Shown: one piece after another, positions 4,414 to 62,719 of the stretch
How the letters are laid out: the number at the start of each line of letters is the position of its first letter
Numbering within the stretch: the first letter of the stretch is position 1
NCBI GenBank assembly: GCA_027053355.1
Contig: JALUDX010000195.1
Span: 846 to 64,845 of the forward strand
DNA length: 64,000 bases
Reading direction: 5' to 3'
From: Anaerolineales bacterium
GTDB lineage: Bacteria; Chloroflexota; Anaerolineae; Anaerolineales; DRMV01
Translations under genes and position numbers: made by a program
Notes under the pieces: generated by a model
What the model saw: only the letters and a program-made list of their open reading frames with translations
Told to the model about the DNA's origin: nothing
The model's database searches: none

Positions 4414-4619
4414 GTAACTATTCAGCCACAAGGAAATAGATCACGGATAACACGGATTTTTAGGTCGCCAAGGTCGCCAAGATGACGCCAAGGCCGCCAA
4501 GAAGTGATGGCGAGCGTGGGCTTTTTAGTGTTTTTCGCCCAATCTGCGCTCATCTTTGGGTCTCTTTCGGCGTAATCTGCGAAATCTGTGGTTTCTTCTT
4601 GCCAAGGCTGAACAGTTAC
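4414..4619 (+). mobile_element. type-A MITE-like element (206 bp), complete
   Basis: TIRs GTAACTATTCAGCC / GGCTGAACAGTTAC. Flanking 8-mers are TTTCGGAG (4406..4413) and TTTTGGAG (4620..4627), matching 7/8. About 90% identical by eye to the copy at 54005..54210. No ORF. Confidence 0.8.
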
Positions 4620-4698: not shown

Positions 4699-4737
4699 TC
4701 AAAAGGAACGCAAAGATGTTGCCTTCCGCTGCCCGCA

Positions 4738-4926
4738 CTACGGATAGCCACGGATGCTCACAGATTTTCAGGTCGCCAAGTCACGCAAAGGGACACAAAG
4801 ACACAGAGAGGGATACGCTAAAATGACGCCAAGCGCCAAGGCGTTGCTAGTATTTTTCGCCCAATCTGTGCCAATCTGTGAAATCTGTGGACGTTTTTCT
4901 GCGAAATCGGCGTAATCTGCGGTTTA
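4738..4926 (+). repeat. type-A-like repeat fragment lacking both TIRs
   Basis: Shares CGGATAGCCACGGAT, GACGCCAAG/GCGCCAAG words, TTTTTCGCCCAATCTGTG and AATCTGCGGTTT with type A but has no GTAAC..GTTAC ends. Confidence 0.55.
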
Positions 4927-4956
4927 GCGCCGCCACCCCAAACGTCAGGGTCGAAG

Positions 4957-5884: not shown

Positions 5885-6562
5885 ATGTACACCATCCGAG
5901 AATGGGCTAAAGACGAACGGCCGCGCGAGCGGCTGGAGCGGTTGGGCGCGCAAAGCCTGAGCACCGCCGAACTGCTGGCGATTTTGTTGCGGGTGGGCAT
6001 CCGCGGCGAAAATGCGGTGCAGGTGGCGCGTCGCTTGCTGCAACAATTCGGCGGGCTGCCCGGCCTGCAACGGGTGGCCTTCAGCGAACTGAAAGCCCAG
6101 CGCGGGCTGGGCACGGCCAAGGCTGCGCAGATCAAAGCCGCGCTGGAATTGGGGCGGCGGTTGCAATTGGCGCAGCGCGGAGAACGACCGCGCATCAGCA
6201 GCCCCGAGGACGCAGCCGCGCTGCTCCTTTACGAAATGAGCGCCTTGGAACAAGAACACCTGCGCGCCTTGCTGCTCGATACCCGCAATCAGGTGCTCAA
6301 AATTCACGAAATCGTGCGCGGGTCGGTCAACAGCGCGCAGGTGCGCATTGCCGAAATTTTCCGCGAGGCCGTGCGCCTCAACGCCACGGCCATCATCTTG
6401 GCGCACAACCACCCCAGCGGCGACCCCACCCCCAGCCCCGACGACGTCGCCCTCACCCGCCAGGCGCAAGAGGCCGGTCGCCTGCTGGATATCGCGGTGT
6501 TAGACCACCTCATCATCGCAGACAACCGCTTCGTTTCCCTCAAGGCGCAAGGGCTGCTCTGA
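5885..6562 (+). CDS. radC: RadC-family JAB-domain protein
   Basis: 225 aa with an N-terminal HhH-like LSTAELLAILLRVG and the JAMM motif HNHPSGDPTPSPDD. Confidence 0.9.
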   Translation: MYTIREWAKDERPRERLERLGAQSLSTAELLAILLRVGIRGENAVQVARRLLQQFGGLPGLQRVAFSELKAQRGLGTAKAAQIKAALELGRRLQLAQRGERPRISSPEDAAALLLYEMSALEQEHLRALLLDTRNQVLKIHEIVRGSVNSAQVRIAEIFREAVRLNATAIILAHNHPSGDPTPSPDDVALTRQAQEAGRLLDIAVLDHLIIADNRFVSLKAQGLL

Positions 6563-11371: not shown

Positions 11372-14300
11372 TCATTCGGGCAGGCGATAGCCAAAATAGC
11401 GCACCAACAGCGCGGCCATCTCCGCGCGGGTAAGGGAAGCATCGGGGTGGTAAGTGCCGTCGGGGTATCCTGAAGCCGCGCCTTCCCAATGCAGTTGCTC
11501 GATCCAATCGGCTGCCCAATGGCCGGCAATATCCGAAAAACTGTACGCGGCAGCCGCGGGCGGGGTGTAATCAGGGCCGTGCAAAGAACGCAAGAGCAGC
11601 ACAGCCACCTCAGCCCGGGAGACCGGCGCTTCGGGGCGATACGTGCCGTCGGGATAGCCGTGCACCAACCCTTCGTCTGCCGCCTCCTCGATCCAATCGG
11701 CTGCCCAGTGCCCCACCACATCGGGGAAGGTGTTTCCTGCAGCCGGGGGCGGCGCGTAATCGCCGCCATGGATCGCCCGCAAAAGGAAGACCGCACTTTG
11801 CGCCCGGGTCACCTGGTCTTGGGGATGATACAACCCATCCGGGTAGCCAGAGGTCACCCCTTCGGCGACCAGGCTTTCCACATACGGCCATGCCCAATCG
11901 TCGGTGGGCACATCAGGGAACGTGGGGTAGGGCGAAGGGCCCTCGCTTTCCCCCGCGGCAGAAAGACAATCGGGGTCATAGGGAAAATCCACCCAGCCGT
12001 CGTGGTCGTTATCCTGGCCGTCGAAACAGGCAGCCAGCGTGACGCCCGCGGTGCTGTGGACGTCGGTGAGGGGGGTATCGAAAATATCGGGTGCGGCCAC
12101 CAGCAAGGGAGTGTAGCCCCAATGCACCATTTGCTGCAATTCTTCGGCGGTGGGCGTGTAGCCGTTACGATAGGCGATGACCGCCGCGCCGGGGTTGAGG
12201 TACTGCATCAGCAGAGGCGGCGCGGTCAACGGCGTGCCTGTCCAGCGGCCTGAAGACCAGGGGTTGTCGGGCTGGAGGAAGAGCGCGGCGCGGGTGTGCA
12301 GATAATCGCTCATCGCGCCTTCGACCCACAACGCCACGTCGGGCGCCTGGGCTTTCAGGTGCGCCAGCCAGGGCAGTTGTTGGAGCGGCGCCATGTTGGG
12401 GAAGGCGTCCAGCCCCAGGGCGTGAGCGCCGCGCGCCACGGCCAAGGCGAGTTCCTGGTCGGCAAAGGCCGTGTCGTCGGCATCGTTGGGGTCGAGGGGC
12501 GGCACCGCGTCGGGGTTCCACTGTCGCGGCTGGGGAACCTGGCCTGCCCGCCCCCACCAGAAGCCCAAATCAATGCCCTGCTCGCCGAACTGGGCGAGCG
12601 CGTCCAACGAATTGGCGACAGGCGAAAGCAAATCGCTCATGAACTGGGGCGGCAGGTTGGTGTCGCAATACGGATGTTCGCCGGGCACCACGGCCTCGGG
12701 CGGGCACTTCCAAAACTGCCCCGAAAACCCCCACAGCATGGCCCGCGAATACCCCGCCTCGCGCAGGCGCTGCACATAGGTGGAAACAAAACCCCGGTTG
12801 TCATGGTCGGGGTTGGGGCCGTCGAGGCCGTATTTGTCGGTGCGCAAGGCCCAGTTGTGGCCGCGCAAATTCCACGCCAGCACGGTTTGTTCGTCAGGCT
12901 CGCTGCCTTCCTCGCAATCGCCCGCGTTCAGGCAGGCCTGGTACTGTTCGTAAGCCACCGTGCTATACGAAAGATTGAGACCGCTGATCGGGCGCAGATC
13001 CCGAGGAGTAATCTGCCGCTGACCGCCGTACAGACCGTCGAAGAAAGCCCGATAGGGGTAAAGGGTCAGCAACCAGGCCCGCGGGGGCGCAAAGCGCAGC
13101 GTCAGGGTGAGGGTCAAGGTAGCGCCGGGCGGCAGGGTTTGGTTCCCCACCCCAAAGTCGTAAACATGGCTCCAGTGCCCCTGCCAATACCACACCCGCA
13201 TTCGCGGCTGCAGGCCGGTGTGGGGATAATCGACCAGCAGGGCCGACCCGGCGGCAAAATGGCCGTCGTGCGCCACGATCACCGGCGCGTACGCGCTGGG
13301 GTAAGGGAAGTCGTCTTCGCCATTGACCTCGAAATACCCCCAGCCGCGGAAATTGCCCTGCCCGTCCTGGAAGGTATCTTCGGAAAGGCTGCGAAGGTGC
13401 AAGTAGGGGTAAGAGCCGGTGGCCAAAATCTGCAGGGTGTCTTGCTCATCGTGGGCGGCATAAGTCAAGCCGTCCACATACAAGTCGGGGAGGGGTTGCG
13501 GCGCGTCGGAGGGGTTGGTGATGGTGTAGACCACGTTCACTCCGGCAGGCGCTTCTTCCAGGCTATACGAAAGCGAGAGCGCACCGTCGCTGTGGTCTTC
13601 CCAAAAGCGTTCGCCCTGAAAAGCCTCGCGCAACACCTGGCCGTCGCTGCGGGTGGCGGTGAACGAAGGGTCGCCCGCCTGGTTGGTGAAAATGTCGATG
13701 GTGACGTCGTCGTACAACCGCTGTGCGTCGGAAGCCGATGCTTCGAAATCGTAGACCACATCAGCATCCGCGGCAGCGCCGAAATCGCTCTTGAACATCA
13801 CCCGCCGGCCGTCGGGCGAGGGCACGGGCATGGGCGATTTGAGGTAATTGGCCGCGCTGCTAAAGTGATGGCCGAAATACTCCACGGTCTGGCTGCCGTC
13901 TAACTTCACCGCTAAAATCAGGCCCCCGCGGTCGGGGTCGGTGCTCACGTAAGCCCACCCGGGGCGCAAAATGTTGCGGCAAGAGAGGTGCGCGTCGCCC
14001 ACACCGAAATCATCCGCGGTGTGAATCACGTCGGCCTGGTCGCGGTCCAGATGATAGGCGTTGATGGTGCCGTTTTCACCCCAAAACTGCACGTACACCT
14101 CGCCCCCCGCGGGGGTAAAACACAAATCGCCGTGGTTGCCGTAGCGCACCAGGCGACGGAGGAAGGCCATGTCGGTGGTGCGGTAAGCCTCTACGCCGTA
14201 ATGGCCGTCGAAGGGCTGCACGTTCCACGGGGGGCCGCTGTTCCAATTGATGACCACATACCGCCCCGATTGCGACACCGAAACCCAGTCCACGTGTTCG

Positions 14301-17500: not shown

Positions 17501-17750
17501 GTAATTGTTCAGCCTTGGGAAAATAGGCCGCGGATGAACGCGGATCATTCCGGATAGCCGCGGATTCAAGCGCGGCGTAGGGCAGGGCGTCATCCCGCCC
17601 AGCCCAAGGGAGGCGAGACAGTGTGCCGCCAACACAGGCGCGCAAAGCAAAGAGAGATTCTGTGTTTTCTGTGCCTTCTCTGTGGCTTCTGTGTTTTTCT
17701 GTCTGCGGCATCGAGATTTCTCTTTTGTTTGCACTGAACGTTACATTTAC
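17501..17750 (-). mobile_element. type-B MITE-like element, inverted orientation
   Basis: Left end GTAATTGTTCAGCC. Canonical-like right end GCACTGAACGTTAC at 17731..17744. If the element extends to 17750, the flanks ATTAGGAG (17493..17500) and ATTAGGGG (17751..17758) match 7/8. Confidence 0.65.
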
Positions 17751-17804
17751 ATTAGGGGACAAATTTTGGGGCACCGGGCACACCACGACATGGCAACGTG
17801 TCGC

Positions 17805-17894
17805 CGGCCTGTGCCAATCTGTGAAATCGGTAGATGTTTTTCTGCGAAATCTGCGAAATCTGTGGTTTCTCCTCAGTCAAGGCCGAATCGTTAC
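17805..17894 (+). repeat. type-A right-half fragment
   Basis: GTGCCAATCTGTGAAATCGG...CTGCGAAATCTGCGAAATCTGTGGTTTCTCCTC...GGCCGAATCGTTAC parallels the right third of type A. Confidence 0.55.
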
Positions 17895-19225: not shown

Positions 19226-19458
19226 GTGACTGTTCAGCCTCTACGGATGACGCAGGCAGAAAACCACAGAGAACACAGAAAGCGGGAAGTCAAGGCGTGA
19301 TGCGGGATGCGGGAAGAGGTGAGGTGCTAAAGGGTTGGTTGGTTGGTTGGTTGGTTACTCAGGCACCTCTCCTGACGCCCTCGGCGCCCCAAAATCCGCG
19401 TCTATCTGCCATCATCCGCGTTCATCCGTGGGCTGTTTTCCAAAGGCTGAACAGTTAC
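19226..19458 (+). mobile_element. type-B MITE-like element (233 bp), complete reference copy
   Basis: TIRs GTGACTGTTCAGCC / GGCTGAACAGTTAC. Perfect 8-bp direct repeat AATCTATG at 19218..19225 and 19459..19466. Contains (GGTT)6 at 19333..19356. No ORF. Confidence 0.88.
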
Positions 19459-19517
19459 AATCTATGTACAGATTACATCAAAAAGCCCAAAAATGCAAGG
19501 GGGATAACTGAGATCCG

Positions 19518-20701
19518 GACATGAGTTAGGACAAAAAAGGGAACCTCCTGTAAATTGTTTTATAGAAAAAACACCACACACAAGGAGGTTCCCTATGTAC
19601 AAGTATAAACGAATTTCCTTGGAACGCTTCGCCCATTACTTGTTTGATAACACTCATGAGGCACAACACGCCGCTGAGATTCTCGCCGCTATCTTGCACG
19701 CTCGCTCAGCACGCTTGACTGAGATCGCTGCCAAAATGCACGGCTCTATGGATGCCGCCTATAAACGCTTGCAACGCTTTCTGCAGCGCCACGACCCACG
19801 CACTGCCTTGTGGCGTCTTTTACCCGATGATGCTCCCTTTGTGTTGGCCGATGTGACCGAGATCCCCCGCCCTCAAGCCTATAAAACCAACTATGTCGGC
19901 ACCTTGAAAGACGGCCACACCAAAGGGTTTTGGGTAATGACATTCGCCACCCCTTATCGGGGGCGGGCCATACCCTGCGGTTTGCTCACCTTTTCCTCCG
20001 CCACCATCGCCCAAAAAGACGGTTCCCGCAACTTGGTGCATCAACGGGCTTTTGAGAGTTTGAAAGACCTGTTGGGTGAGCGGCCGGTGGTTTTAGATCG
20101 GGAATTCAGTTATTCGGGCCTGCTCCAATTTTTGACAGCAGCGGGCGTCCATTTCGTTATCCGTCTGCGACTGGGCTCCCGCCCGCCCAAGTTCTTTGAT
20201 GACGAAGGGAGCGAGGTCAAACTGAACATTGCCCGAGGGCAACGGGTGGTGTACCGCAACCTGTGGTACAAAGGCGAAGTGCAGGTGCAGGTCATTGGCG
20301 AATGGAGAGCGGGCCAACCCGAGCCGCTATGGGTGATCACAGACTTGGCGCCGGAGCAAAGCTTGGCCTACTACAAACAACGGATGAAGATAGAGGAAAG
20401 CTATCGTGATCTGAAAAGTCTCTTGGGGATGGAGCGGGTGATGAACAAACGGCAGGAATACATGGAGAAGGCACTTGCATTGGTAATGTTGGCGTATGCA
20501 ATTGCGCTGATGGTAGGCGAGAAACTTCGCGATGCAATGTTTGGCAATGCTAAAAGGACGAGCAAGTGGCGGCGCTATTCGGGAGCCTTTATTTTGTTGA
20601 AGGATTATTGGTCAATACCAACCCGCCTTTACAAAGAGGCGTCTAAACAAGCCTTGAGCGCCTTTGCTGATTTGGTTCTACCTCATGTCCTAACTCATGT
20701 C
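19518..20701 (+). mobile_element. IS4-superfamily-like insertion sequence (~1.18 kb)
   Basis: 16-bp perfect terminal inverted repeats GACATGAGTTAGGACA (19518..19533) / TGTCCTAACTCATGTC (20686..20701) bracket a single DDE transposase gene. Visibly lower G+C than the flanks. No clear target duplication found. Confidence 0.8.
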
Positions 20702-20704
20702 TGA
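19595..20704 (+). CDS. DDE transposase (IS4/PF01609-like)
   Basis: 369 aa with candidate catalytic D in LADVTEI, D in VLDREF and E in RMKIEESYRDLKSLLG (the R..IEE.F/Y..LK signature of DDE_Tnp_1). RBS AAGGAGG. Confidence 0.8.
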   Translation: MYKYKRISLERFAHYLFDNTHEAQHAAEILAAILHARSARLTEIAAKMHGSMDAAYKRLQRFLQRHDPRTALWRLLPDDAPFVLADVTEIPRPQAYKTNYVGTLKDGHTKGFWVMTFATPYRGRAIPCGLLTFSSATIAQKDGSRNLVHQRAFESLKDLLGERPVVLDREFSYSGLLQFLTAAGVHFVIRLRLGSRPPKFFDDEGSEVKLNIARGQRVVYRNLWYKGEVQVQVIGEWRAGQPEPLWVITDLAPEQSLAYYKQRMKIEESYRDLKSLLGMERVMNKRQEYMEKALALVMLAYAIALMVGEKLRDAMFGNAKRTSKWRRYSGAFILLKDYWSIPTRLYKEASKQALSAFADLVLPHVLTHV

Positions 20705-20756
20705 ACTTCAGGCGCAACATCGCTAAAACGTACCCCCAATCCTATTCGCGGCCTAT

Positions 20757-22509: not shown

Positions 22510-23343
22510 GTGTCGTCTATCACCACAGACCAAGGCGTTGTCCATTATGAAGTCTTCGGCCATGGCCAGCCCGTGATTTTGCTCCATGGGTGGTTAGGCT
22601 CATGGGGTGTGTGGCAAGAGACCATGGCTCAATTGGGGAAATACTACCGAACCTACGCTTTGGATTTCTGGGGGTTCGGCGAATCAGGCAAAAAGCGCGA
22701 TTCTTACGACGTTGCCGATTTTGTGGGACTGGTTGAGCAATTTATGGAGCAATTGGGCATCGTGCGCGCGCCGCTGGTTGGGCATAGCATGGGCGGCACA
22801 GTCGCCCTAAGTGTAGCCATTCAATATCCCCAACGGGTAAGCAAAGTGGTGGTCATCGGCTCGCCCATTGTGGGCTCTTCACTCTCATGGCCGTTGAAAC
22901 TGGCCGGTTACCGACCGATTGCCTTTTTGGTATATCATCAGATGACGCTGCTGCGTTTAGGGATCCGCTTGTTTTCTTCTTTAGTGACCAGTGACCCTCG
23001 CTGGCCTGAAATGATGGATCGCGACCTCTCGCAGGTTACCCTGGAATCATTTCTCCACAGCATTGCTTCATTACGGCGCACTGATCTGCGCCCCTTTTTG
23101 CCGGAAATTCAAGTGCCCGTGTTGGGAATGTATGGCGAGAAAGACGTCATCGTCCACCCCGACCAATGGATGTATCTCAAACAAGGCGTGCCCCACGCGC
23201 AGATCAGCCGTTATGCTGCAGCCGGGCATTTCATCATGTTAGACCAGCCTAAAGCGTTCATCCAGCGGCTGCACACTTTTCTGGCCACAACGCCCACCTT
23301 ACCCCTGACGGGTTTAGGTCAAACGACAACACAGGGAGCATGA
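22510..23343 (+). CDS. alpha/beta hydrolase (H1, intact catalytic triad)
   Basis: 277 aa, GTG start. LLHGW oxyanion region, nucleophile elbow GHSMGG (Ser93), and later GEKD and AAGHF. Confidence 0.8.
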   Translation: MSSITTDQGVVHYEVFGHGQPVILLHGWLGSWGVWQETMAQLGKYYRTYALDFWGFGESGKKRDSYDVADFVGLVEQFMEQLGIVRAPLVGHSMGGTVALSVAIQYPQRVSKVVVIGSPIVGSSLSWPLKLAGYRPIAFLVYHQMTLLRLGIRLFSSLVTSDPRWPEMMDRDLSQVTLESFLHSIASLRRTDLRPFLPEIQVPVLGMYGEKDVIVHPDQWMYLKQGVPHAQISRYAAAGHFIMLDQPKAFIQRLHTFLATTPTLPLTGLGQTTTQGA

Positions 23344-23918
23344 AACCACCCACGGAGCACGAAGCACCCCCTGAGGTAGCGCTGTTCATGCCGCCGCTGC
23401 AGCCCCAAGATGCGCTACCTCAGGCCTGGGCGGCGGCATGGCGAGAACTCTTCGGTGCGCGCACCGCTCCCCTGGCCGCGCAAGGCGAAGCATTGCAACC
23501 GTGGCTGTGCGCGAACTACGGCCCCCGCGGGGGCCAAGGCCTGGCCTGGCGTTTCGGCCGGGCCTTGGCCCGGCACTGGTGGCCTTCGTTAGCCACGTCT
23601 GCCAGTTTGCACACCCCCACCTTTGGGCTACAACCGCGCGGGCAACGGGTGATAGAAGGACTACGCCGCCTGGCAAGGCAGGCCGCGCCGGCGTTACAAA
23701 GCCCGGTATGGGTCGATACCGACGCCACAGCAGTGTATTGGCGCTGGCGGCGCTGCGCCTTTGGCCTTGGTTGCCCCTTCAACCCAGACCACTCCCCCCC
23801 CTGCGCACCCTGGTTCGGCTTCCTGCAAGAAAGCGTCTATCGCCTGAGCGGCGGGCGATGGATCACACCCCAACCTGTGCCGGGCCAGCAGGCCATTACC
23901 CTGCCCCTGCAGTGGTAA
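23340..23918 (+). CDS. hypothetical Trp/Arg/Pro-rich protein (weak V4R-like C-terminus?)
   Basis: 192 aa, with ATGA coupling to H1. The C-terminal CAPWFGFLQESVYRLSGG faintly recalls V4R small-molecule-binding domains. No firm family. Confidence 0.4.
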   Translation: MKPPTEHEAPPEVALFMPPLQPQDALPQAWAAAWRELFGARTAPLAAQGEALQPWLCANYGPRGGQGLAWRFGRALARHWWPSLATSASLHTPTFGLQPRGQRVIEGLRRLARQAAPALQSPVWVDTDATAVYWRWRRCAFGLGCPFNPDHSPPCAPWFGFLQESVYRLSGGRWITPQPVPGQQAITLPLQW

Positions 23919-23939
23919 CTTCCCCCAGTAAATAAGGTC

Positions 23940-25223
23940 ATGCTCAAAATTATTTTGCATGACGACCGGCATATCTTGCCATTCAATGAGCCAGCCCGCG
24001 ACCTGCGCATCCAAAACAAACCCCTTTGGCTGGCGCAGCGCGACGTGCTGAGCCCTTACGTCAGCCGCGAGATGGAAATCCCCTGGGGGCAACCTCTCCC
24101 GCCGGTGCAAGAGGAGACCGTCGTCTATCGCGATAACCTCTTTTTCGACCAACACTACATCGAGGCATTTTTGCAAGCCGCGCGGCAACGGGGGCGACCG
24201 GTACAGGCTGCTTTCTCCGCGCACGACCCGGCTTTTCGCGAACACGCGCTGCCGCTCTCCATTTCTTATACCCCTTACGATGACCTCTACCTGGCCGACT
24301 TGTGGTATTACCCCCACGGCACGGCTACCGATACACCGCCTGAACCCCTGGTGCTCGACTTGCAAGCGCGAGAAATCGGATACTACCACGTGCCAACTTA
24401 CATGGCCACTCAACAGGGCGATTTGGTCTTCCAAGTGCCGTTGCGGGCGCTGATTGCCATCGATAGTTGGGTGCACATTTTCGTGGCCGACGTCATTTTT
24501 GGCCTCTTTGCCCGCGGTGCGCGTTTCGAAGAGCGACTAAACCGCGACCCCTGGTTCAAACTGCGCATTTTGGGGCGCGCAATGTACGAAGGCCGACAAG
24601 TGCTCGCTGCTTCCCCCTTAGTGCGGGTCGGGCGCAACGTGGTCATCGACCCCACCGCAGTCATCCACGGCCCCACGGTCATCGGCGACAACGTGACCAT
24701 TGGGGCCGGCGCGGTGATCGACAATGCCATCATCGGCGACAACGTCAACATCTCGCAAGGTGTGCAGGTTTTGCTTTCGGTAGTTGGCGATGGCGCGTTC
24801 CTGCCTTTCCGTGCGGCGTTGTTTATGACCACCCTGATGGACAACAGCATGGTGGCACAAAACACGTGTTTGCAAATGTGCGTCGTGGGCCGCAACACGT
24901 TCATCGGCGCGGGTACTACTTTCACCGACTTCAACCTGATTTCTGCCCCCATCAAGGCGCGCGATGGCCGCGGCATTTTACGCGACGCCAACCGGCCCGT
25001 GTTGGGCGGCTGTGTGGGGCACAATTGTCGCTTAGGGTCAGGGCTGATCATCTACCCCGCCCGAACCATCGAATCAGACGTGGTGCTGGCCGCTTCGCCC
25101 GAACGGCGGGTGATCATGAAAGACGTGCGCTACGAAGATAGCGACCACCATCACCTGCGCGGCGGGCATCGCCACCCTCGCTTATACCCCCGCCCCGGCG
25201 AACGCAACAACCTTTCGTGGTAG
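23940..25223 (+). CDS. GlmU-like putative sugar nucleotidyltransferase/acyltransferase with left-handed beta-helix
   Basis: 427 aa. N-terminus MLKIILHDDRHILPF...RDLRI resembles the putative sugar nucleotidyl transferase family as recalled. The C-terminal half has hexapeptide repeats (VIHGPTVIGDNVTIGAGAVIDNAIIGDNVNISQGV). Confidence 0.5.
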   Translation: MLKIILHDDRHILPFNEPARDLRIQNKPLWLAQRDVLSPYVSREMEIPWGQPLPPVQEETVVYRDNLFFDQHYIEAFLQAARQRGRPVQAAFSAHDPAFREHALPLSISYTPYDDLYLADLWYYPHGTATDTPPEPLVLDLQAREIGYYHVPTYMATQQGDLVFQVPLRALIAIDSWVHIFVADVIFGLFARGARFEERLNRDPWFKLRILGRAMYEGRQVLAASPLVRVGRNVVIDPTAVIHGPTVIGDNVTIGAGAVIDNAIIGDNVNISQGVQVLLSVVGDGAFLPFRAALFMTTLMDNSMVAQNTCLQMCVVGRNTFIGAGTTFTDFNLISAPIKARDGRGILRDANRPVLGGCVGHNCRLGSGLIIYPARTIESDVVLAASPERRVIMKDVRYEDSDHHHLRGGHRHPRLYPRPGERNNLSW

Positions 25224-39201: not shown

Positions 39202-39726
39202 AGCCGCCGAACACCGGGTAACAAGCCCACGAACCCATAAAAACCCGCGCCTGCCCACCTATACCACCCTATGGGCGGGGCCTCAACGCCTTCGCGTGGC
39301 TTGGGCAGAAGTCCGCACAAGGGCTTGGCCCCGTGAGCCTGCGGGGACTATCCTCGCGCGCAAGTTAAAAAAACCCAAATACGAGAGAGCCGGGGGAAAA
39401 CCGCCTACTTCTACACTCAGCAGCCGGGGGAAAGAAACAGCGAACGAACAAAGCAAGCCAACGGCTCACCTTTGTCTATTTGACCTTACCGCTTCCCCCA
39501 GGGCTCCCCGGCAGCAACTTTCCAAAAAGGCACGTCGTGCTTCTTTGGCGAAAAAACAAGGACCCCAGTAATTACGATGAAAATTTACAAACCCTTCGGG
39601 TTTATGCGCCGTCTCCTCAGATCGGTAGAGGGGAGATGACACAAAAAGAAAACGGAGTTGAGGGCACAGAGCAACACGGCGTCCTCTTCCATCAATAACC
39701 TATGGCCTTCTCCTGAAGCAGGCATA

Positions 39727-39911: not shown

Positions 39912-41162
39912 ATGCTTCTCTCGCGTCCATACAAGGCTTTTGTGCTCGGCTTAGGCCTGTTAGTCATTCTGATGGCCTGCAATCTGTTTACCCGCCCAGC
40001 AGCGGGCCCCGATGCGCAAACGCTGCAAACCTTGGCCGCCCAAACCGTTCAGGCTGCGCTGACCGCACAATCTTCGACCGCTGCTCCCCCCGCTGCCACA
40101 GCCGGTGCACACCCTACCACCGCCGCGCCCACACCAACCACGGCCGCAGCGACCTCAGCCCCGCAACCTACACCCACCACAGCCTCTCCCTCACCCACGC
40201 CGCAGCCTCCCACGCCGACCCCCATCGTGCCCACGGCTACCCCCACACCCAAACCGTGCAATCTGGCCACGTTCATCGCCGACGTTACCGTGCCCGACAA
40301 CACCGAATTTCAGCCAGGCGAGGCGTTCACTAAAACCTGGCGGCTGAAAAACGTGGGCACGTGCACTTGGCAGAATTACAGCGTGGTGTTCGACCACGGC
40401 GACGCGATGGGCGGCGCGCCGGTCGTGCCCTTGCCCGCGGTGGTGGCCCCAGGCCAAGAGGTCGACGTGTCGGTCAACCTGACCGCACCCGCCAACGAAG
40501 GCACCTATCAGGGCTTCTGGCGGCTCCGCGATGCCCACGGCGTGGTTTTTGGCTTGACCACGGGCAACCCCTTCTGGGTCAAAATCAAAGTAGTTGCCCC
40601 GACGGCAACACCCGTTCCTACGCCCACCCCCACGGCTACCCTGCCGCCGCCGGCTTTACTGGTGTTCGACTTCTACCAACAAGCCCCCAACGCGACCTGG
40701 TATAACGGCCACAGCCAGACACTCCCCTTCCCCGGCAGCACCAGCGATGCTCGCGGCTTTGCCCGTTACGCCGATAACGCCTTGTTAGAAGACGGCCACC
40801 GTTATCGCCACGTGCTCCAAACCCACCCCGAATGGGTCAACAACGGCTTGATTACGGGGCACTTCCCGCCGTTTACTTTGAGCCAAGACGGGCGCTTCCA
40901 GGCCAAAATCGGCTTCATCGCCCTCAGCGATGGTACTTGCGGCCTTGGCGACGTGGAATTCCGCTTGTACATTCACCGCCCTCCTGCGCCGCCCCATCGC
41001 ATTGCCCAATGGCACGCCACGTGCGACGGCACCCTCCAAAATGTGGAAGTGCCTCTTTCCGCTTCCTCCCAACCGATTCGCTTGATCCTCCAGGTGGCTG
41101 CTGGCAGCAGTTCTGCCCAGGATTGGGCAGTGTGGGTCAACCCGGTGGTGTCTTCGCCCTAA
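39912..41162 (+). CDS. membrane-anchored/secreted protein with NBR1-type Ig-like domain
   Basis: Start at MLLSRPYK after the strong RBS AAGGAGG. TM/lipobox-like LVILMACN, Pro/Thr/Ala linkers, and the segment VPDNTEFQPGEAFTKTWRLKNVGTCTW...GQEVDVSVNLTAPANEGTYQGFWRL typical of the N_BRCA1_IG domain as recalled. Confidence 0.6.
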   Translation: MLLSRPYKAFVLGLGLLVILMACNLFTRPAAGPDAQTLQTLAAQTVQAALTAQSSTAAPPAATAGAHPTTAAPTPTTAAATSAPQPTPTTASPSPTPQPPTPTPIVPTATPTPKPCNLATFIADVTVPDNTEFQPGEAFTKTWRLKNVGTCTWQNYSVVFDHGDAMGGAPVVPLPAVVAPGQEVDVSVNLTAPANEGTYQGFWRLRDAHGVVFGLTTGNPFWVKIKVVAPTATPVPTPTPTATLPPPALLVFDFYQQAPNATWYNGHSQTLPFPGSTSDARGFARYADNALLEDGHRYRHVLQTHPEWVNNGLITGHFPPFTLSQDGRFQAKIGFIALSDGTCGLGDVEFRLYIHRPPAPPHRIAQWHATCDGTLQNVEVPLSASSQPIRLILQVAAGSSSAQDWAVWVNPVVSSP

Positions 41163-41223: not shown

Positions 41224-41290
41224 ACCTGTTTGTAACCGTTCAGCCTCGAAGAGACGCTACGGATAACGCAGGCAGAAAACCACAGAAGAC

Positions 41291-41682
41291 GTAATGCATA
41301 ATCAACCATGATAGTTGGTTTAGGCCTTTTGCAACTTGGCGCCCAAATTTTTGATCTCTCCCTACCCCGCTCCGGCGAGGCCTCGCCTTCGCTCAGCCTG
41401 CCGGAGCCGCCCCCTTTCCTCCCTTACTTGCACTTTGACAAATTGTTACGACAATCCGAGGCTATGGCCTGGGCCGGTCTCCCCTCTCCCTCTGGGAGAG
41501 GGGCCGGGGGTGAGGGCGTAAAAAGCCCATTGGCTTAGCGCCCTCACCACTCCCCCGGACGCCGCCCAGCGGCGTCCGGGGGAGTGGTGAGGGCGAGCAA
41601 GGTGTAATGCTGTTTCATGGCATGGCAGAGTTATTGGAATATTGCTTGTCAACCTCGTTTTCGGAGCAGGGCAGGTAGTTAC
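41291..41682 (+). mobile_element. nested non-coding element (392 bp) with GTAA...TTAC ends and perfect 8-bp TSD
   Basis: Flanked by CAGAAGAC at 41283..41290 and 41683..41690. Starts GTAATGCAT and ends GGTAGTTAC. Carries G/C-rich hairpin modules. Confidence 0.8.
41539..41595. repeat. perfect 27-bp-arm inverted repeat (hairpin/cruciform)
   Basis: CGCCCTCACCACTCCCCCGGACGCCGC - CCA - GCGGCGTCCGGGGGAGTGGTGAGGGCG. Every arm position is complementary. Confidence 0.9.
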
Positions 41683-41840
41683 CAGAAGACACAGAAAGCG
41701 GGATGTGGGGAACGGGAAGTGGAATGCGGCCGTTGGCGTCATTTTGGGGCCTCGGCGCCCAAAAATCCGCGTCTATCCGCCATCATCCGCGTTCATCCGT
41801 GGGCTGTTTTCCAACCCAACAAGGAATGGCCTGACGACCC

Positions 41841-42830
41841 TCAGCCTTTGCCCCGAGTTTCAGGGCTGCCGCTCATCCTGGGCCAGGCCAACCAGGGCAT
41901 CCCACGCCAGAGGCAACGAAGATACACCACCAAAGGCAAGAGCACAATCCACCGTAAAATCCCCCAACGGAAGTAGAAGAACAAGAACCCCACATTGCTC
42001 CACCACGAAATCCAGCCAATGGGGAACACCTGCAACATCACCAGGCTGTGCTGCTGGTAGTAAGGCATGGTCAGCGCGCTGACGGTCAAAACCAAGAGGA
42101 GTTTTTTAGCGCGCGGCAGCCGCACAAAGAACACGGGCAGCCAGAGAAGCAAGGCCCACGGGCCGACGACTTCCCACAGGGTGATGCTCCCATGACGATA
42201 AAGGGGGCCATGGAAAAGATGATGCCACCAGCCGGGGAACCACCAACCGTAGCGCAGCACCGAAGCCAACACCACCCCCACAGGTACGGCCAGGCTTTTG
42301 AGCCGCGCTGGAGGCGACAACCACCACCACAACAAAATCAACGCGGCCAATGAAATTTGCGGTTTCAACGCAGCCAGGGCAAAACCCACACCCATCCACC
42401 ACGGCCGGTTGCGCTCCAAAGCCCACCAACTAAGCGCCAACCCTAAAACCACCAAGGCGTCAATCTGCCCATAAAACAGCAAAAAGAAGAAGGGATAGGT
42501 CAGCAACACATGGATCAGCCGCCCTTGAAAGACTCGCGTGGCCGCCACAAGGGCAACCAACGAACCCAAAGAAAGCAAGCCGTAAGCCAACGAAAAAGGC
42601 AACCACGCCAAAGCCTCGAACAAAGGACGCAACCAATAAGGGTTGTAAAAGTCCTCCAAGTCTCCATGGGCTACAGGCAAATAAGAAAAGCGCAAATCGA
42701 CCCCTGCGCTGGGCAAAAAAGCGAAAACCACGATCACACCCAAAGCAACGCCGATAGCCAAGGCGTCTTCCGTCTTCTTTCGGTCGTATCTGCGTTGGGG
42801 AGAGAACAAAGAGGGCATCGTAAGTACCAA
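41841..42830 (-). CDS. polytopic membrane protein (possible GT-C/DUF2029-like glycosyltransferase)
   Basis: 329 aa with about 9 hydrophobic helices. TTG at 42830 or ATG at 42818. The family assignment is tentative. Confidence 0.4.
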   Translation of the reverse strand: MVLTMPSLFSPQRRYDRKKTEDALAIGVALGVIVVFAFLPSAGVDLRFSYLPVAHGDLEDFYNPYWLRPLFEALAWLPFSLAYGLLSLGSLVALVAATRVFQGRLIHVLLTYPFFFLLFYGQIDALVVLGLALSWWALERNRPWWMGVGFALAALKPQISLAALILLWWWLSPPARLKSLAVPVGVVLASVLRYGWWFPGWWHHLFHGPLYRHGSITLWEVVGPWALLLWLPVFFVRLPRAKKLLLVLTVSALTMPYYQQHSLVMLQVFPIGWISWWSNVGFLFFYFRWGILRWIVLLPLVVYLRCLWRGMPWLAWPRMSGSPETRGKG

Positions 42831-49666: not shown

Positions 49667-49804
49667 CGCGCCTCTGATTACCCGACACAAAAGCAATCGT
49701 GCCCCGGCCGTTGTTTCATTGACCGGCAGATCTCATCTCGTCATGCCAAATCTTTACAAAAGTCTTGTTTTTCACGCCCTCTCCTCTCCCCCCAAGCCGC
49801 CCCC

Positions 49805-49936
49805 CTTCGACTTCGCTCAGGGCAGCCTTCGACTTCGCTCAGGGCAGCCTTCGTCTTCGCTCAGGGCAGCCTTCGTCTTCGCTCAGGGCAGCCTTCGTCT
49901 TCGCTCAGGGCAGCCTTCGTCTTCGCTCAGGGCGGC
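49805..49936. repeat. 22-bp tandem repeat, 6 copies
   Basis: CTTCG(A/T)CTTCGCTCAGGGCAGC repeated head to tail with no spacers. The last unit ends GGCGGC. Confidence 0.9.
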
Positions 49937-49942
49937 GGCTTT

Positions 49943-49984
49943 CCCCCCTCCCCTCTCCCGCAGCAGCGGGAGAGGGGAGGGGGG
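49943..49984. repeat. perfect 19-bp-arm G/C-rich hairpin
   Basis: CCCCCCTCCCCTCTCCCGC - AGCA - GCGGGAGAGGGGAGGGGGG. Confidence 0.9.
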
Positions 49985-50075
49985 ATAAAAGGGGGGCGGG
50001 GTGAGGGTAAATGCAAAAGTTAGAAGTCTGCTCAAGTTTGTGTCGGGTAACCAGACCCCTTTCTCTGGAGCCGCC

Positions 50076-53946: not shown

Positions 53947-54004
53947 GTCACCGTTGAGTCTCAAAGAGACTCTACGGATTGCGCAGGCGGAAAATCACAC
54001 AAGA
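53947..54004 (+). repeat. type-B left-arm fragment abutting a type-A element
   Basis: GTCACCGTTGAGTCTCAAAGAGACTCTACGGATTGCGCAGGCGGAAAATCACAC parallels 41232..41285 and 21678..21728. Confidence 0.6.
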
Positions 54005-54210
54005 GTAACTATTCAGCCACAAGGGAATAGACCACGGATAGCACGGATTTTTAGGTCGCCAAGGTCGCCAAGATGACGCCAAGACCGCCAAGAAGCGAGG
54101 ACGAGCGTGGGCTTTTTAGTATTTTTCGCCCAATCTGTGCTAATCTGTGAAATCTATGGTTGTCTTTCTGCATAATCTGTGGTTTCTTCTTGCCAAGGCT
54201 GAACAGTTAC
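54005..54210 (+). mobile_element. type-A MITE-like element (206 bp), complete
   Basis: TIRs GTAACTATTCAGCC / GGCTGAACAGTTAC. Same length as, and colinear with, 4414..4619. No TSD (flanks ACACAAGA vs GATAGGTC), possibly because it sits in a mosaic. Confidence 0.8.
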
Positions 54211-58335: not shown

Positions 58336-60177
58336 TCATTCCACAGTCACCGATTTGGCCAGGTTCCGCGGCTGGTCCACATCCAACCCGCGCATGGCCG
58401 CGATGTGATAGGCCAACATCTGCAAAGGCACCACCGTGACCACCGGGCTCAACAGCCAGGGCGTGGGCGGCACCCACAGCACTGCATCGGCCAAGGGCGG
58501 AATCAGGGTATCCCCTTCGGTCACCACGGCAACGACCGGCGCGCCCCGCGCCTTGGCCTGCTCTACCTGGCTCACCATTTTTTCGTACCAGGGGTCGCGG
58601 GGCGCGAGGGCGATGACCGGCGTTTCTTCGTCCAAGAGCGCGATGGGGCCGTGCTTCATCTCGCCCGCGGGGTAGCCCTCCGCGTGAATGTAGGAAATTT
58701 CTTTGAGTTTGAGCGCACCTTCGTAGGCGGTGGCCATGTTGATGCCGCGGCCGATGTACAGGCAACTGCGCACGTCTTTCAACTGCCGGGCGACCGCGAT
58801 CACCTCTTCCTCCCGTTCTAACACCTGGCTCACCAGATAGGGCACGAGGCGCAAATCGGCCACCAAGCGGCGGCGTTCCGCAGCGGGCAAGGTGCCCCGC
58901 AAATCGCCCAACAACACGGCCAGCATGTACAAATCCACCAAGGGCGCGGTGTAGGCTTTGGTCGAAGCCACGCCGATTTCGGGGCCCACTTGCATGGAAA
59001 TGTAGCCCTGGGCAATGCGCATGGCCTGGGAGCCAATGGCGTTGACGATCGACCACAGGGTCGCCCCTTTGCGCCGTCCCTCTTCCATCGCGGCCAAGGT
59101 ATCGGCCGTCTCGCCCGATTGGCTTATGGCTAACACCACATCGTCGGGCCCCACCAGGGGGTCGGCATAGCGAAACTCCGAGGCCACCATCACTTCCACA
59201 GGCACCCGCGCGATGCGTTCCAACAGGGTTTTGCCCACCAGCCCGGCGTGGTAAGCCGTGCCGCAGGCGGTGATGAAAATTTTGCGCACCCGGCGGGCAA
59301 GTTCCGGGGTCAGGTTGAGGGTGTCCAGATAAATTTTTCCGCCTTCGAAGTCGACACGGCCGGCAATGGTGTCGGTCAGGCCGCGCACCTGCTCGTGAAT
59401 TTCTTTTTGCATGAAATGGCGGTATTCGCCCTTTTCCGCCGCCACCGGATCCCACGGCACCACGGTCGGTTGCAGGGGCTGCGGGTTGCCGTCGAGATCC
59501 ATCAGGTGCACGGCATCCCGCTGCACCACCACCATTTGCCGCGGCTCTAAAAAGGCCACCCGCCGGGTATGCTCCAAAATCGCGGGCAGGTCAGAAGCCA
59601 CCAGCATTTCGTCCTCGCCCAGGCCCACCACAATGCCGCCCGCGTTGCCCAGCCGCGCGGCCACGATTTTGTCGGGCTCCAAAGCCGACATGACCACCAC
59701 CGCGTTGGAACCCTCCAACAATTGCAGGGTTTGGCGCACGGCCTCGACCAGGCCGGTCTCGCGGCTGAGGAAGCGTTCGATCAAATGGGCAATGACCTCG
59801 CTGTCGGTCTCGGAGCGGAAATGGGCGCCTTCTGCGGCCAGTTCGTCACGCAAGGCGAGGAAGTTTTCCACAATGCCGTTGTGCACCACCACCACTTGCC
59901 CGCGATCGCTCACGTGGGGGTGGGCATTGCGCTGCGAAGGCTCGCCGTGGGTCGCCCAGCGGGTATGGCCGATGCCCACATGGCCGCTCAGGGGTTGCGC
60001 TTCGACCAATGCCTGCAGGCGATGCAACTTCCCCACCGCGCGGCGCAATTGCACGCCCCGCTCGGTGAGCACGGCCAGCCCCGCCGAGTCGTAGCCGCGG
60101 TATTCCAACCGCTTCAAGCCGTTGAGGATGATTGGCGTCGCGTCTCGAGGCCCAATATAGCCCACAATGCCACACAT
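58336..60177 (-). CDS. glmS: glutamine--fructose-6-phosphate aminotransferase
   Basis: Start at MCGIVGY (Cys nucleophile must follow Met; RBS GGAGGTG 5 nt upstream). Two SIS domains, and the C-terminus ends AKSVTVE. Confidence 0.93.
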   Translation of the reverse strand: MCGIVGYIGPRDATPIILNGLKRLEYRGYDSAGLAVLTERGVQLRRAVGKLHRLQALVEAQPLSGHVGIGHTRWATHGEPSQRNAHPHVSDRGQVVVVHNGIVENFLALRDELAAEGAHFRSETDSEVIAHLIERFLSRETGLVEAVRQTLQLLEGSNAVVVMSALEPDKIVAARLGNAGGIVVGLGEDEMLVASDLPAILEHTRRVAFLEPRQMVVVQRDAVHLMDLDGNPQPLQPTVVPWDPVAAEKGEYRHFMQKEIHEQVRGLTDTIAGRVDFEGGKIYLDTLNLTPELARRVRKIFITACGTAYHAGLVGKTLLERIARVPVEVMVASEFRYADPLVGPDDVVLAISQSGETADTLAAMEEGRRKGATLWSIVNAIGSQAMRIAQGYISMQVGPEIGVASTKAYTAPLVDLYMLAVLLGDLRGTLPAAERRRLVADLRLVPYLVSQVLEREEEVIAVARQLKDVRSCLYIGRGINMATAYEGALKLKEISYIHAEGYPAGEMKHGPIALLDEETPVIALAPRDPWYEKMVSQVEQAKARGAPVVAVVTEGDTLIPPLADAVLWVPPTPWLLSPVVTVVPLQMLAYHIAAMRGLDVDQPRNLAKSVTVE

Positions 60178-60200
60178 GGTCACCTCCATGGCGTCTGATG

Positions 60201-60375: not shown

Positions 60376-60684
60376 TCGCAAACGCCACGCCTGAGCGTTT
60401 TGTCCGCGGAATTACTTCCACGGCGTTGTGGCTCAGGTCGTCAATTCCCCCTGATGGTGGAGGGCCGGGGTGTGGCATCCCCGGGAGGGCATCCGCCGAT
60501 CCTTCGATTTTCCCGCCCGGTGGCTCCGAGCGGTTAGCCTTGCCTCGCGACAAGGAACCCTCATCCTCGTCACCCGCGCGCACGCGGGCCTGGCGCTCTT
60601 CCCTCCGATGGGTTGTCGTTTGAGATGGCACCTCCTGAAGGGTGGTTTGCGGGGTGATTGTATCACAATTCGCGGCGCTGGCCG

Positions 60685-62514: not shown

Positions 62515-62719
62515 GTGGCCGTTCAGCCCCGGCAAGGAGAAACCACAGATTGCGCAGAAGAACATCCACAGATTTCACAGATGAACACAAATTGGGCGAA
62601 AAACACTAAAAAGCCCACGCTCGCCCTCGCTTCTTGGCGGTCCTGGCGTCATCTTGGCGACCTTGGCGACTTAAAGATCCGTGTTATCCGTGGTCTCTTC
62701 CTCGCGGCTGAAGGGTTAC
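62515..62719 (-). mobile_element. type-A MITE-like element (205 bp), inverted orientation, complete
   Basis: Ends GTGGCCGTTCAGCC / GGCTGAAGGGTTAC. Perfect 8-bp direct repeat CCCCAAAA at 62507..62514 and 62720..62727. The interior is the reverse complement of 4414..4619. Confidence 0.85.

Follow-up and report, generated by a model that had tools for sequence, protein, structure and literature searches.

An NBR1-Ig-domain gene that ends at 41162 and a GT87 glycosyltransferase gene that ends at 41841 converge on a spacer in which a type-B MITE is interrupted by 392 bp of other sequence. The locus raises the question whether one mobile element has inserted into another, whether the incoming DNA was of the same kind as its host, and which enzyme joined it there. 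The window is the whole 64-kb contig stretch that was analyzed, and all coordinates given without a source label are window positions.

The insertion and its target duplication

The insert spans 41291..41682 on the forward strand, starts with GTAATGC and ends with GGTAGTTAC. It is flanked by a perfect direct repeat, CAGAAGAC, at 41283-41290 and 41683-41690. The repeat is exactly 8 bp long, and the bases next to its two copies are unlike (A/C before, G/A after). An earlier sequence-only reading of the window had described a 392-bp insertion into a type-B MITE with a perfect 8-bp duplication, and its coordinates were found to be exact. The left arm of the host MITE (41232..41290, forward strand) starts with the left TIR GTAACCGTTCAGCC, carries sub-terminal CGGAT and CACAGAA motifs, and runs to ...AAAACCACAGAAGAC at 41290. 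After the right copy of the repeat, the type-B MITE picks up again with ACAGAAAGCGGG, and its middle and right arm cover 41691..41814 (forward strand), where the homology stops and the right TIR is missing. The right arm (41750-41814) is 96.9% identical to 19379-19443 by BLAST.

When 41291-41690 is deleted, BLAST aligns 47 nt across the junction with 93.6% identity to the paralogue at 19241-19287, which bears out the claim that excision restores colinearity with the type-B copy starting at 19226. That copy had been used as the intact reference. It spans 19226-19458, is flanked by a perfect duplication (AATCTATG, 8/8), and has a left end that reads GTGAC and not GTAAC.

By our rough estimate, about 0.015 GTAA...TTAC pairs with identical outer 8-mers are expected by chance per window. 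For pairs 40-4000 bp apart, one such case was observed in the 64 kb, the 392-bp insert, and none in any of five offset controls. The insertion target is a stretch of variable CACAGAA-like units, so that an 8-bp repeat at this place is somewhat less improbable than 4^-8. A promoter and terminator scan of the insert region yielded nothing informative.

The variable target bears on an explanation without a transposase, in which the 392 bp were captured in double-strand-break repair or by template switching, and the flanking repeat arose from staggered-end fill-in or from pre-existing CACAGAA(G)A units. Type-B copies hold one to about five CACAGAA-like units at exactly the insertion place, the sequence past the right repeat (ACAGAAAGC) already resembles CAGAAGAC, and the insert, which has no TIRs, resembles repeat-rich intergenic DNA. 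However, the two copies of the repeat are identical and directly adjoin the insert, and the closest paralogue and the orthologue have two CACAGAA-like units, not three; a three-unit array would also require a missing A. Repair models do not predict boundaries of GTAA and AGTTAC either, and the length of the duplication is that of the resident MITE family. We consider capture during repair unlikely.

Three alleles of the locus in related genomes

Related loci were reached through the neighboring proteins. Those homologues of the neighboring gene that carry a name at all are labeled Anaerolineales or Chloroflexi. The exact neighbor protein P0126 is also encoded on ENA scaffold L003, which is the same sequence, 99% identical to the window; the differences are an extra C within a homopolymer and an inverted hairpin loop. 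The 97%-identical proteins P0001, P0122 and P0124 led to contigs of a sister lineage, with flanks of about 95-96% DNA identity (93-96% in the comparison with the MITE given below). A look-up of the flanking GT87 protein returned only the same scaffold and a Logan contig that ends in the right arm of the MITE.

Three alleles were distinguished. In the first, found in the window and in L003, the type-B MITE carries the 392-bp insert. In the second, found in L016 (GCA_054009155.1) and the Logan contig L012, the orthologous left arm starts with its TIR at the same place, continues ...AAAACCACAAAAGGCTCAGGAAACGGGATGCGG... and passes the insertion point without the insert; L016 reads about 40 nt past this point before the contig ends. 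In the third (L005-L011 and L013-L015), 16 nt of left TIR are followed by a type-C element of 290-313 bp, with its own TIR CTGGTTACCCGACACAAA and 22-nt tandem repeats, and then by the type-B right arm. Two contigs with this third allele, L007 and L011, extend into the GT87 gene.

The right TIR is missing from all three alleles, so the MITE is old and its uninterrupted state ancestral. In addition, all type-B paralogues are uninterrupted at the insertion point. The 392-bp insertion is thus derived in the window's lineage, after its split from the sister lineage. The orthologues and paralogues confirm the claim of the sequence-only reading that the insertion hit a pre-existing MITE, and the empty type-B site that it had suggested looking for in related genomes is present in both contigs with the second allele. 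At this locus, a fossil MITE carries a derived insertion flanked by an exact 8-bp duplication, a dated and polarized event in an uncultured lineage. Among genomes that are about 95-96% identical, the same MITE is found in three states: uninterrupted, with the 392-bp insert, and with an IS4-like element in place of its interior. Polymorphism between lineages extends to other elements at or near the locus, which indicates that transposition was recent and ongoing.

The second allele (L012) and the third (L013-L015, also L006-L011) both lie beside the identical 416-aa protein P0122, and so segregate within one very close population. In L010, the locus enters a poly-C/poly-G low-complexity stretch at 11400-11581, followed by the start of an IS3-type OrfA (MGTTKIKRYSESFKRQVVREY). 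This arrangement is probably an assembly join or another insertion.

An assembly artefact, that is, a chimeric repeat join in a metagenome-assembled genome, would also place foreign sequence inside a MITE. The locus is rich in repeats, most sister and Logan contigs break inside this very MITE, and both insert-bearing assemblies may stem from one sample. Yet each junction overlaps the MITE by only 8 bp, which is much shorter than an assembler k-mer and too little for a de Bruijn mis-join, and a mis-join is not expected to create a precise target duplication. The same structure, moreover, is seen in the NCBI-derived window and in the ENA scaffold, apart from one C and the flipped 3-nt loop. An artefact is highly improbable. 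In practice, these metagenome assemblies break at MITEs.

Nested transposition might also have occurred in a different type-B copy and have been transferred here later by gene conversion or homologous recombination, so that the duplication would be genuine and the event non-local. Type-B copies share arms that are up to 97% identical and could support conversion. Identity between the MITE and its orthologue is about 77-86% by our count, versus 93-96% for the flanks, which hints at exchange among copies, and the interior of the same MITE has been replaced by a type-C element in other sister contigs. Against this explanation, neither the window nor 185 kb of related loci showed another insert-bearing type-B copy, and conversion adds an event while explaining nothing further. 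It appears quite unlikely.

Host MITE family and the ends of the insert

The motif GTAACTGTTCAGCC, the TIR of the host MITEs, has 22 matches in the window with at most 3 mismatches, versus 3.7 expected, and bounds about ten short elements. Besides the copy at 19226-19458, the one at 62515-62719 has a perfect duplication (CCCCAAAA, 8/8), and those at 4414-4619 and 17501-17750 have duplications of 7/8 each. ISDge4 from Deinococcus geothermalis belongs to the ISBst12 group of the IS66 family and has been shown to be mobile. Its TIRs are GTGACTACTCAGCA / GTAACTGCTCAGCA and its direct repeat is 8 bp long (PMC12898284), so that it resembles the host MITEs in its duplication length and in its GTAA...TTAC termini. 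Its TIR GTAACTGCTCAGCA matches the host TIR at 12/14 positions. IS66 inverted repeats begin GTAAGCG, and the family makes 8-bp direct repeats (PMC11946415). Judged by the TIR match and the 8-bp duplications, types A and B look like MITEs of an ISBst12-group-like element of the IS66 family. No paper linking ISBst12 and MITEs was found in the literature searched, a weak sign of novelty at best.

No IS66-type transposase was detected among 17 ORF translations scanned against Pfam, 15 of which are the longer ORFs of the window. The single transposase found among them is an IS4/IS5-type gene. It lies in an IS of about 1.2 kb at 19508-20711, which has imperfect 26-nt TIRs (CTGAGATCCGGACATGAGTTAGGACA) and a 369-aa ORF with a DDE_Tnp_1 (IS4/IS5-type) domain, and sits 50 bp from the intact type-B MITE. 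A 1475-bp segment bounded by GTAA...TTAC at 22837-24311 was considered as an autonomous IS and rejected, as it has no transposase-sized ORF. Partial type-A remnants, a decayed interior without TIRs at 4700-4930 and a solo right arm adjoining a type-B copy at 17751-17894, show that these MITEs are frequently truncated.

The sequence-only reading had attributed to the insert the same GTAA...TTAC logic as to its host. The termini are indeed GTAA and TTAC, and the duplication has the 8-bp length of the host family, but the 14-bp TIR that is conserved in every A or B copy is absent from both ends. The left end matches it for 4 bases and the right end for 6, AGTTAC being the last six bases of the host TIR. 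The sub-terminal repeats of the A and B MITEs are lacking as well. Compared by eye, the two ends of the insert share GTAA only and are not inverted repeats of each other.

The same view emerged when each of the 254 GTAA sites in the window was scored against the TIR core. True MITE ends hold the top ranks, whereas the left and right ends of the insert rank 78th and 41st, and a GTAATGC inside the insert, at 41604, comes about 26th. When 3 mismatches are allowed, each of the terminal 17-mers of the insert matches itself alone in the window. The left GTAA is a junction and not a TIR, because insert bases 2-3 are the TA flank and bases 4-136 the left arm of an element X (see below), so that it is made up of a G, this TA and the first base of the arm. 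Hence, contrary to the sequence-only reading, the insert and its host MITE are elements of different kinds, and GTAA/TTAC ends alone are insufficient to assign an element to an IS66-type family.

The boundaries are nevertheless informative. At 62% GC, the chance of GTAA or TTAC at one boundary is about 0.002 each by our calculation. Since the boundaries are set independently by the duplication, GTAA at one and AGTTAC at the other are unlikely to have arisen by chance, and an IS66-family enzyme is still favored.

Duplications of 8 bp are made by several IS families, and a transposase of another such family (ISL3-, IS256- or IS1595-like, for example) might have made the insertion, with GTAA/TTAC being coincidental. 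A duplication length common to several families would fit, as would insert ends without an IS66-type TIR, and the TA flank and first A of X account for part of the left GTAA. However, the last six bases of the host TIR, AGTTAC, recur unchanged at the right boundary. The resident, numerous family with 8-bp duplications is the GTAAC one, and in the window no 8-bp duplications were seen around elements with other TIRs. An enzyme of another family is very unlikely to be responsible.

Mosaic content, routes and insertion point

The content of the insert is chimeric. It begins, after the initial G, with a TA (41292-93) and the left terminus of MITE family X (ATGCATAATCAACC...), which together cover 41292..41346 on the forward strand; insert bases 5-136 are 94.7% identical to L020. 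The left half of a module H follows (41347..41426, forward strand), consisting of hairpin 1 and the left strand of hairpin 2, and is common to X elements and an element in L027. Next come the left part of a repeat Y (CTTGCACTTTGACAAATTGTTACGACAAT...) and GC-rich hairpins (41427..41577, forward strand). A palindrome at 41539..41595 has perfect 27-nt arms (41539-41565 and 41569-41595) around a 3-nt loop, just as the sequence-only reading had described it. The last part is a unique 87-bp tail (41596..41682, forward strand) that ends with GGCAGGTAGTTAC and contains, at 41604, the GTAATGC that repeats the first 7 bases of the insert. Smith-Waterman alignments of the tail with X and with types A, B and C, assessed with shuffles, revealed no convincing similarity (best z about 2.4-2.5; 7-9 of 300 shuffles reached an equal score).

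The whole insert folds far better than shuffled sequences (z = -7.5). In Rfam, it matched no family at threshold and had only generic long-hairpin matches, with sub-threshold ones at the palindrome. The palindrome loop (41566-41568) reads CCA in the window and TGG in L003 (3904-3906), two assemblies of one strain, which reflects either a real hairpin flip or assembly ambiguity.

Insert bases 6-136 match (83%) a sister-lineage element at L007 9169-9291, between a clpC-like and the NBR1-Ig gene; its filled site (L007 9155-9352) corresponds to a clean empty site at 39259-39262 in the window, and the pair reads ACC-TA-TACC. A scan of JGI metagenomes with a conserved 20-mer of X yielded ten loci. 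Nine contain X sequence, six of them at full length, and the tenth (L018) matches the 20-mer alone. These loci define family X, whose elements measure 185-272 bp between conserved GCAT and GCAY termini, and about 250-275 bp overall. They end with RTGCATAATCAACC...GAAAATGCAY and are flanked by TA on the left in 7/8 and on the right in 6/6 cases. X is therefore a TA-duplicating MITE, and its TA duplication and TIRs point to an IS630/Tc1-mariner-like family. Insert bases 4-136 correspond to the left arm, at up to 94.7% identity and preceded by the TA of the family. Unlike complete X elements, which have both TIRs and TA on both sides, the insert has the left TIR and left TA only; it lacks the right arm and right TA and is flanked by 8 bp, not by TA.

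The X element between the clpC-like and NBR1-Ig genes is present in the sister lineage (L005-L010, L016 and L021) and absent from the window, so that this polymorphism at 39259-39262 has the opposite polarity to the 392-bp insertion.

The middle part of the insert has a close relative of a different type. A 76-aa ORF at 41308-41535 has a single protein match, P0127, which led to L027 (GCA_027044735.1), where 5896-6127 is 97.4% identical to insert bases 57-287. There, the shared core is part of a roughly 530-bp element, which has type-C TIRs (CTGGTTACACGACACAAAA ... TTTTTGTGTCAGGTAGCCAG) and is flanked by a perfect 9-bp duplication, TTTTATCTA. Also in L027, a hairpin, GCCCCCTTCCCTCCCTTA...AGGGAGGGAAGGGGGC, is split in its loop by the repeat Y, which has a sub-terminal inverted repeat CAAATTGTTRCGACAAT. 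The junction CCCTTA|CTTGCAC is identical in the insert and in L027, so this part of the mosaic is older than the 392-bp insertion. The sequence-only reading had described the insert as having a different cargo, with G/C-rich hairpins and the palindrome. These features are present, but they are pieces of other repeats. More generally, the intergenic cargo in such elements is mostly debris of other repeats and not a functional payload.

In bases 57-287, the insert thus resembles the interior of a type-C, IS4-like element. Type-C elements also sit inside or against GTAAC-type MITEs, as the insert sits inside a type-B MITE. In contrast to them, however, the insert has neither CTG...CAG TIRs nor a 9-bp duplication. 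An assignment to type C based on the resemblance of ...GTTAC+CAG to the end GTAACCAG was rejected, as the CAG also occurs at empty sites and belongs to the target, and the insert does not begin with CTG.

Type-C elements with the TIR CTGRTTACCCGACACAAA were found at 49674-50053 in the window (reverse strand, with a 22-nt tandem array at 49782-49957), at L007 11339-11651 and at L027 5814-6345. The window and L007 copies abut TIRs of GTAAC MITEs and have no duplication, as expected after adjacent deletions. The GC-rich hairpin motif at 41477-41529 (CCCCTCTCCCTCTGGGAGAGGGGCCGGGGGTGAGGGC) appears to be widely scattered: plasmids of cyanobacteria (Pseudanabaena, Leptolyngbya) and proteobacteria (Cupriavidus, Sulfitobacter) contain stretches of 40-50 nt that match it at 87-95%, and one of these matches falls within a gene annotated DUF559.

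A second full copy of the insert, with GTAA/TTAC ends and 8-bp duplications, was not found in the small body of searchable data. The window contains none, nor does the insert or its tail recur elsewhere in 249 kb (the window and 185 kb of related loci). The exact 20-mer of the left end had two chance matches only in GTDB representative genomes, and the JGI metagenome loci reached with the X core pattern contained no full copy. The right end, the Y segment and the internal GTAATGC segment had no match in IMG/VR, and a protein-space search with a 78-aa minus-frame ORF over the tail also had none. Plasmid and phage collections gave only matches of about 40-50 nt to the GC-rich hairpin motif. Given the limited data, this is absence of evidence only.

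Together, the best explanation, with a probability of roughly 0.6, is that an IS66-family-type transposase joined the 392-bp chimera into an older type-B MITE after the lineage split. The MITE, its right TIR already lost, would have sat between the convergent NBR1-Ig-like and GT87 genes. After the sister lineage had split off, a DDE transposase with an 8-bp target stagger would have joined the non-autonomous segment into the sub-terminal CACAGAA repeat region, and gap repair would then have duplicated CAGAAGAC. The 8-bp duplication, the GTAA at one boundary and the AGTTAC at the other suggest that this enzyme was most likely of the IS66 family (ISBst12-group-like), the same class that presumably moved the type-A and type-B MITEs. 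The segment consists of a G-TA with the X left arm, a palindromic module with its hairpin loop interrupted by Y, GC-rich palindromes and the 87-bp tail. Several observations count against this explanation, namely the TIR-less ends, the X-derived GTAA, the lack of a second copy, the lack of an IS66 transposase among the scanned ORFs, and the CACAGAA target.

Both the enzyme family and the route by which the mosaic originated are what we infer from these comparisons, and two routes carry roughly equal weight. Along the first, the chimera would have formed at a donor site, from which it would have made a single move with minimal GTAA/TTAC ends. This needs one event at the locus, but also an enzyme that tolerates TIR-less ends, and the window offers no other example of such promiscuity. 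Along the second, a small IS66-type element with proper TIRs would have inserted first, a composite of X and Y would then have hit the TA within the terminal GTAA of that element, and the right half of X and the original left TIR would have been lost by deletion. Three events are needed, and no relative of the postulated IS66-type element was found. The types of step are common here, as seen in truncated MITEs, in a fusion of types A and B at 53947-54210, and in duplication-less type-C elements (49674-50053 and the third allele). The 7-nt GTAATGC repeat (41291 and 41604) fits the second route loosely and post hoc.

The fusion at 53947-54210 comprises a 58-nt type-B left arm followed by a complete 206-bp type-A MITE (54005-54210), with no duplication and no type-B right part. 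In an ungapped alignment of the arms, the type-A MITE starts after position 58 of the type-B arm, and the 392-bp insert after position 59. We estimate a chance of about 1% that two independent insertions into an element of about 230 bp would fall within 1 nt of each other. There may be a hotspot after AAAACCACAGAAGA in type-B arms, with a target preference near sub-terminal repeats. A bolder version would have an IS66-family transposase of this Chloroflexota-like lineage move TIR-less DNA bounded by GTAA/TTAC, preferentially into the sub-terminal hotspot of its own MITEs. We regard it as doubtful and probably wrong; if true, such a self-targeting transposase would be the engine that builds the mosaic, module-swapping repeats seen here.

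Nested and chimeric MITEs have been described in plants, and ISEcp1-type elements mobilize foreign DNA via surrogate ends. The present locus resembles these systems in having an element within an element, chimeric content and possibly weak ends. To our knowledge, no IS66-family enzyme has been documented to use surrogate ends, and such use here would be conjecture. Non-autonomous elements that sit within one another and have chimeric content are well known in transposable-element biology; the IS66/ISBst12-type MITEs of a Chloroflexota-like lineage and a locus with three alleles are new instances and not a new kind. At least three kinds of small non-autonomous elements, with 8-bp, TA and 9-bp duplications, have recently been active here and have inserted into one another.

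Elsewhere in the window, a glmS ribozyme was detected on the reverse strand at 60380-60608, above the Rfam gathering score (39.7 versus 37 bits). Downstream of it, the same strand holds a 617-aa ORF (58336-60189), which is presumably glmS.
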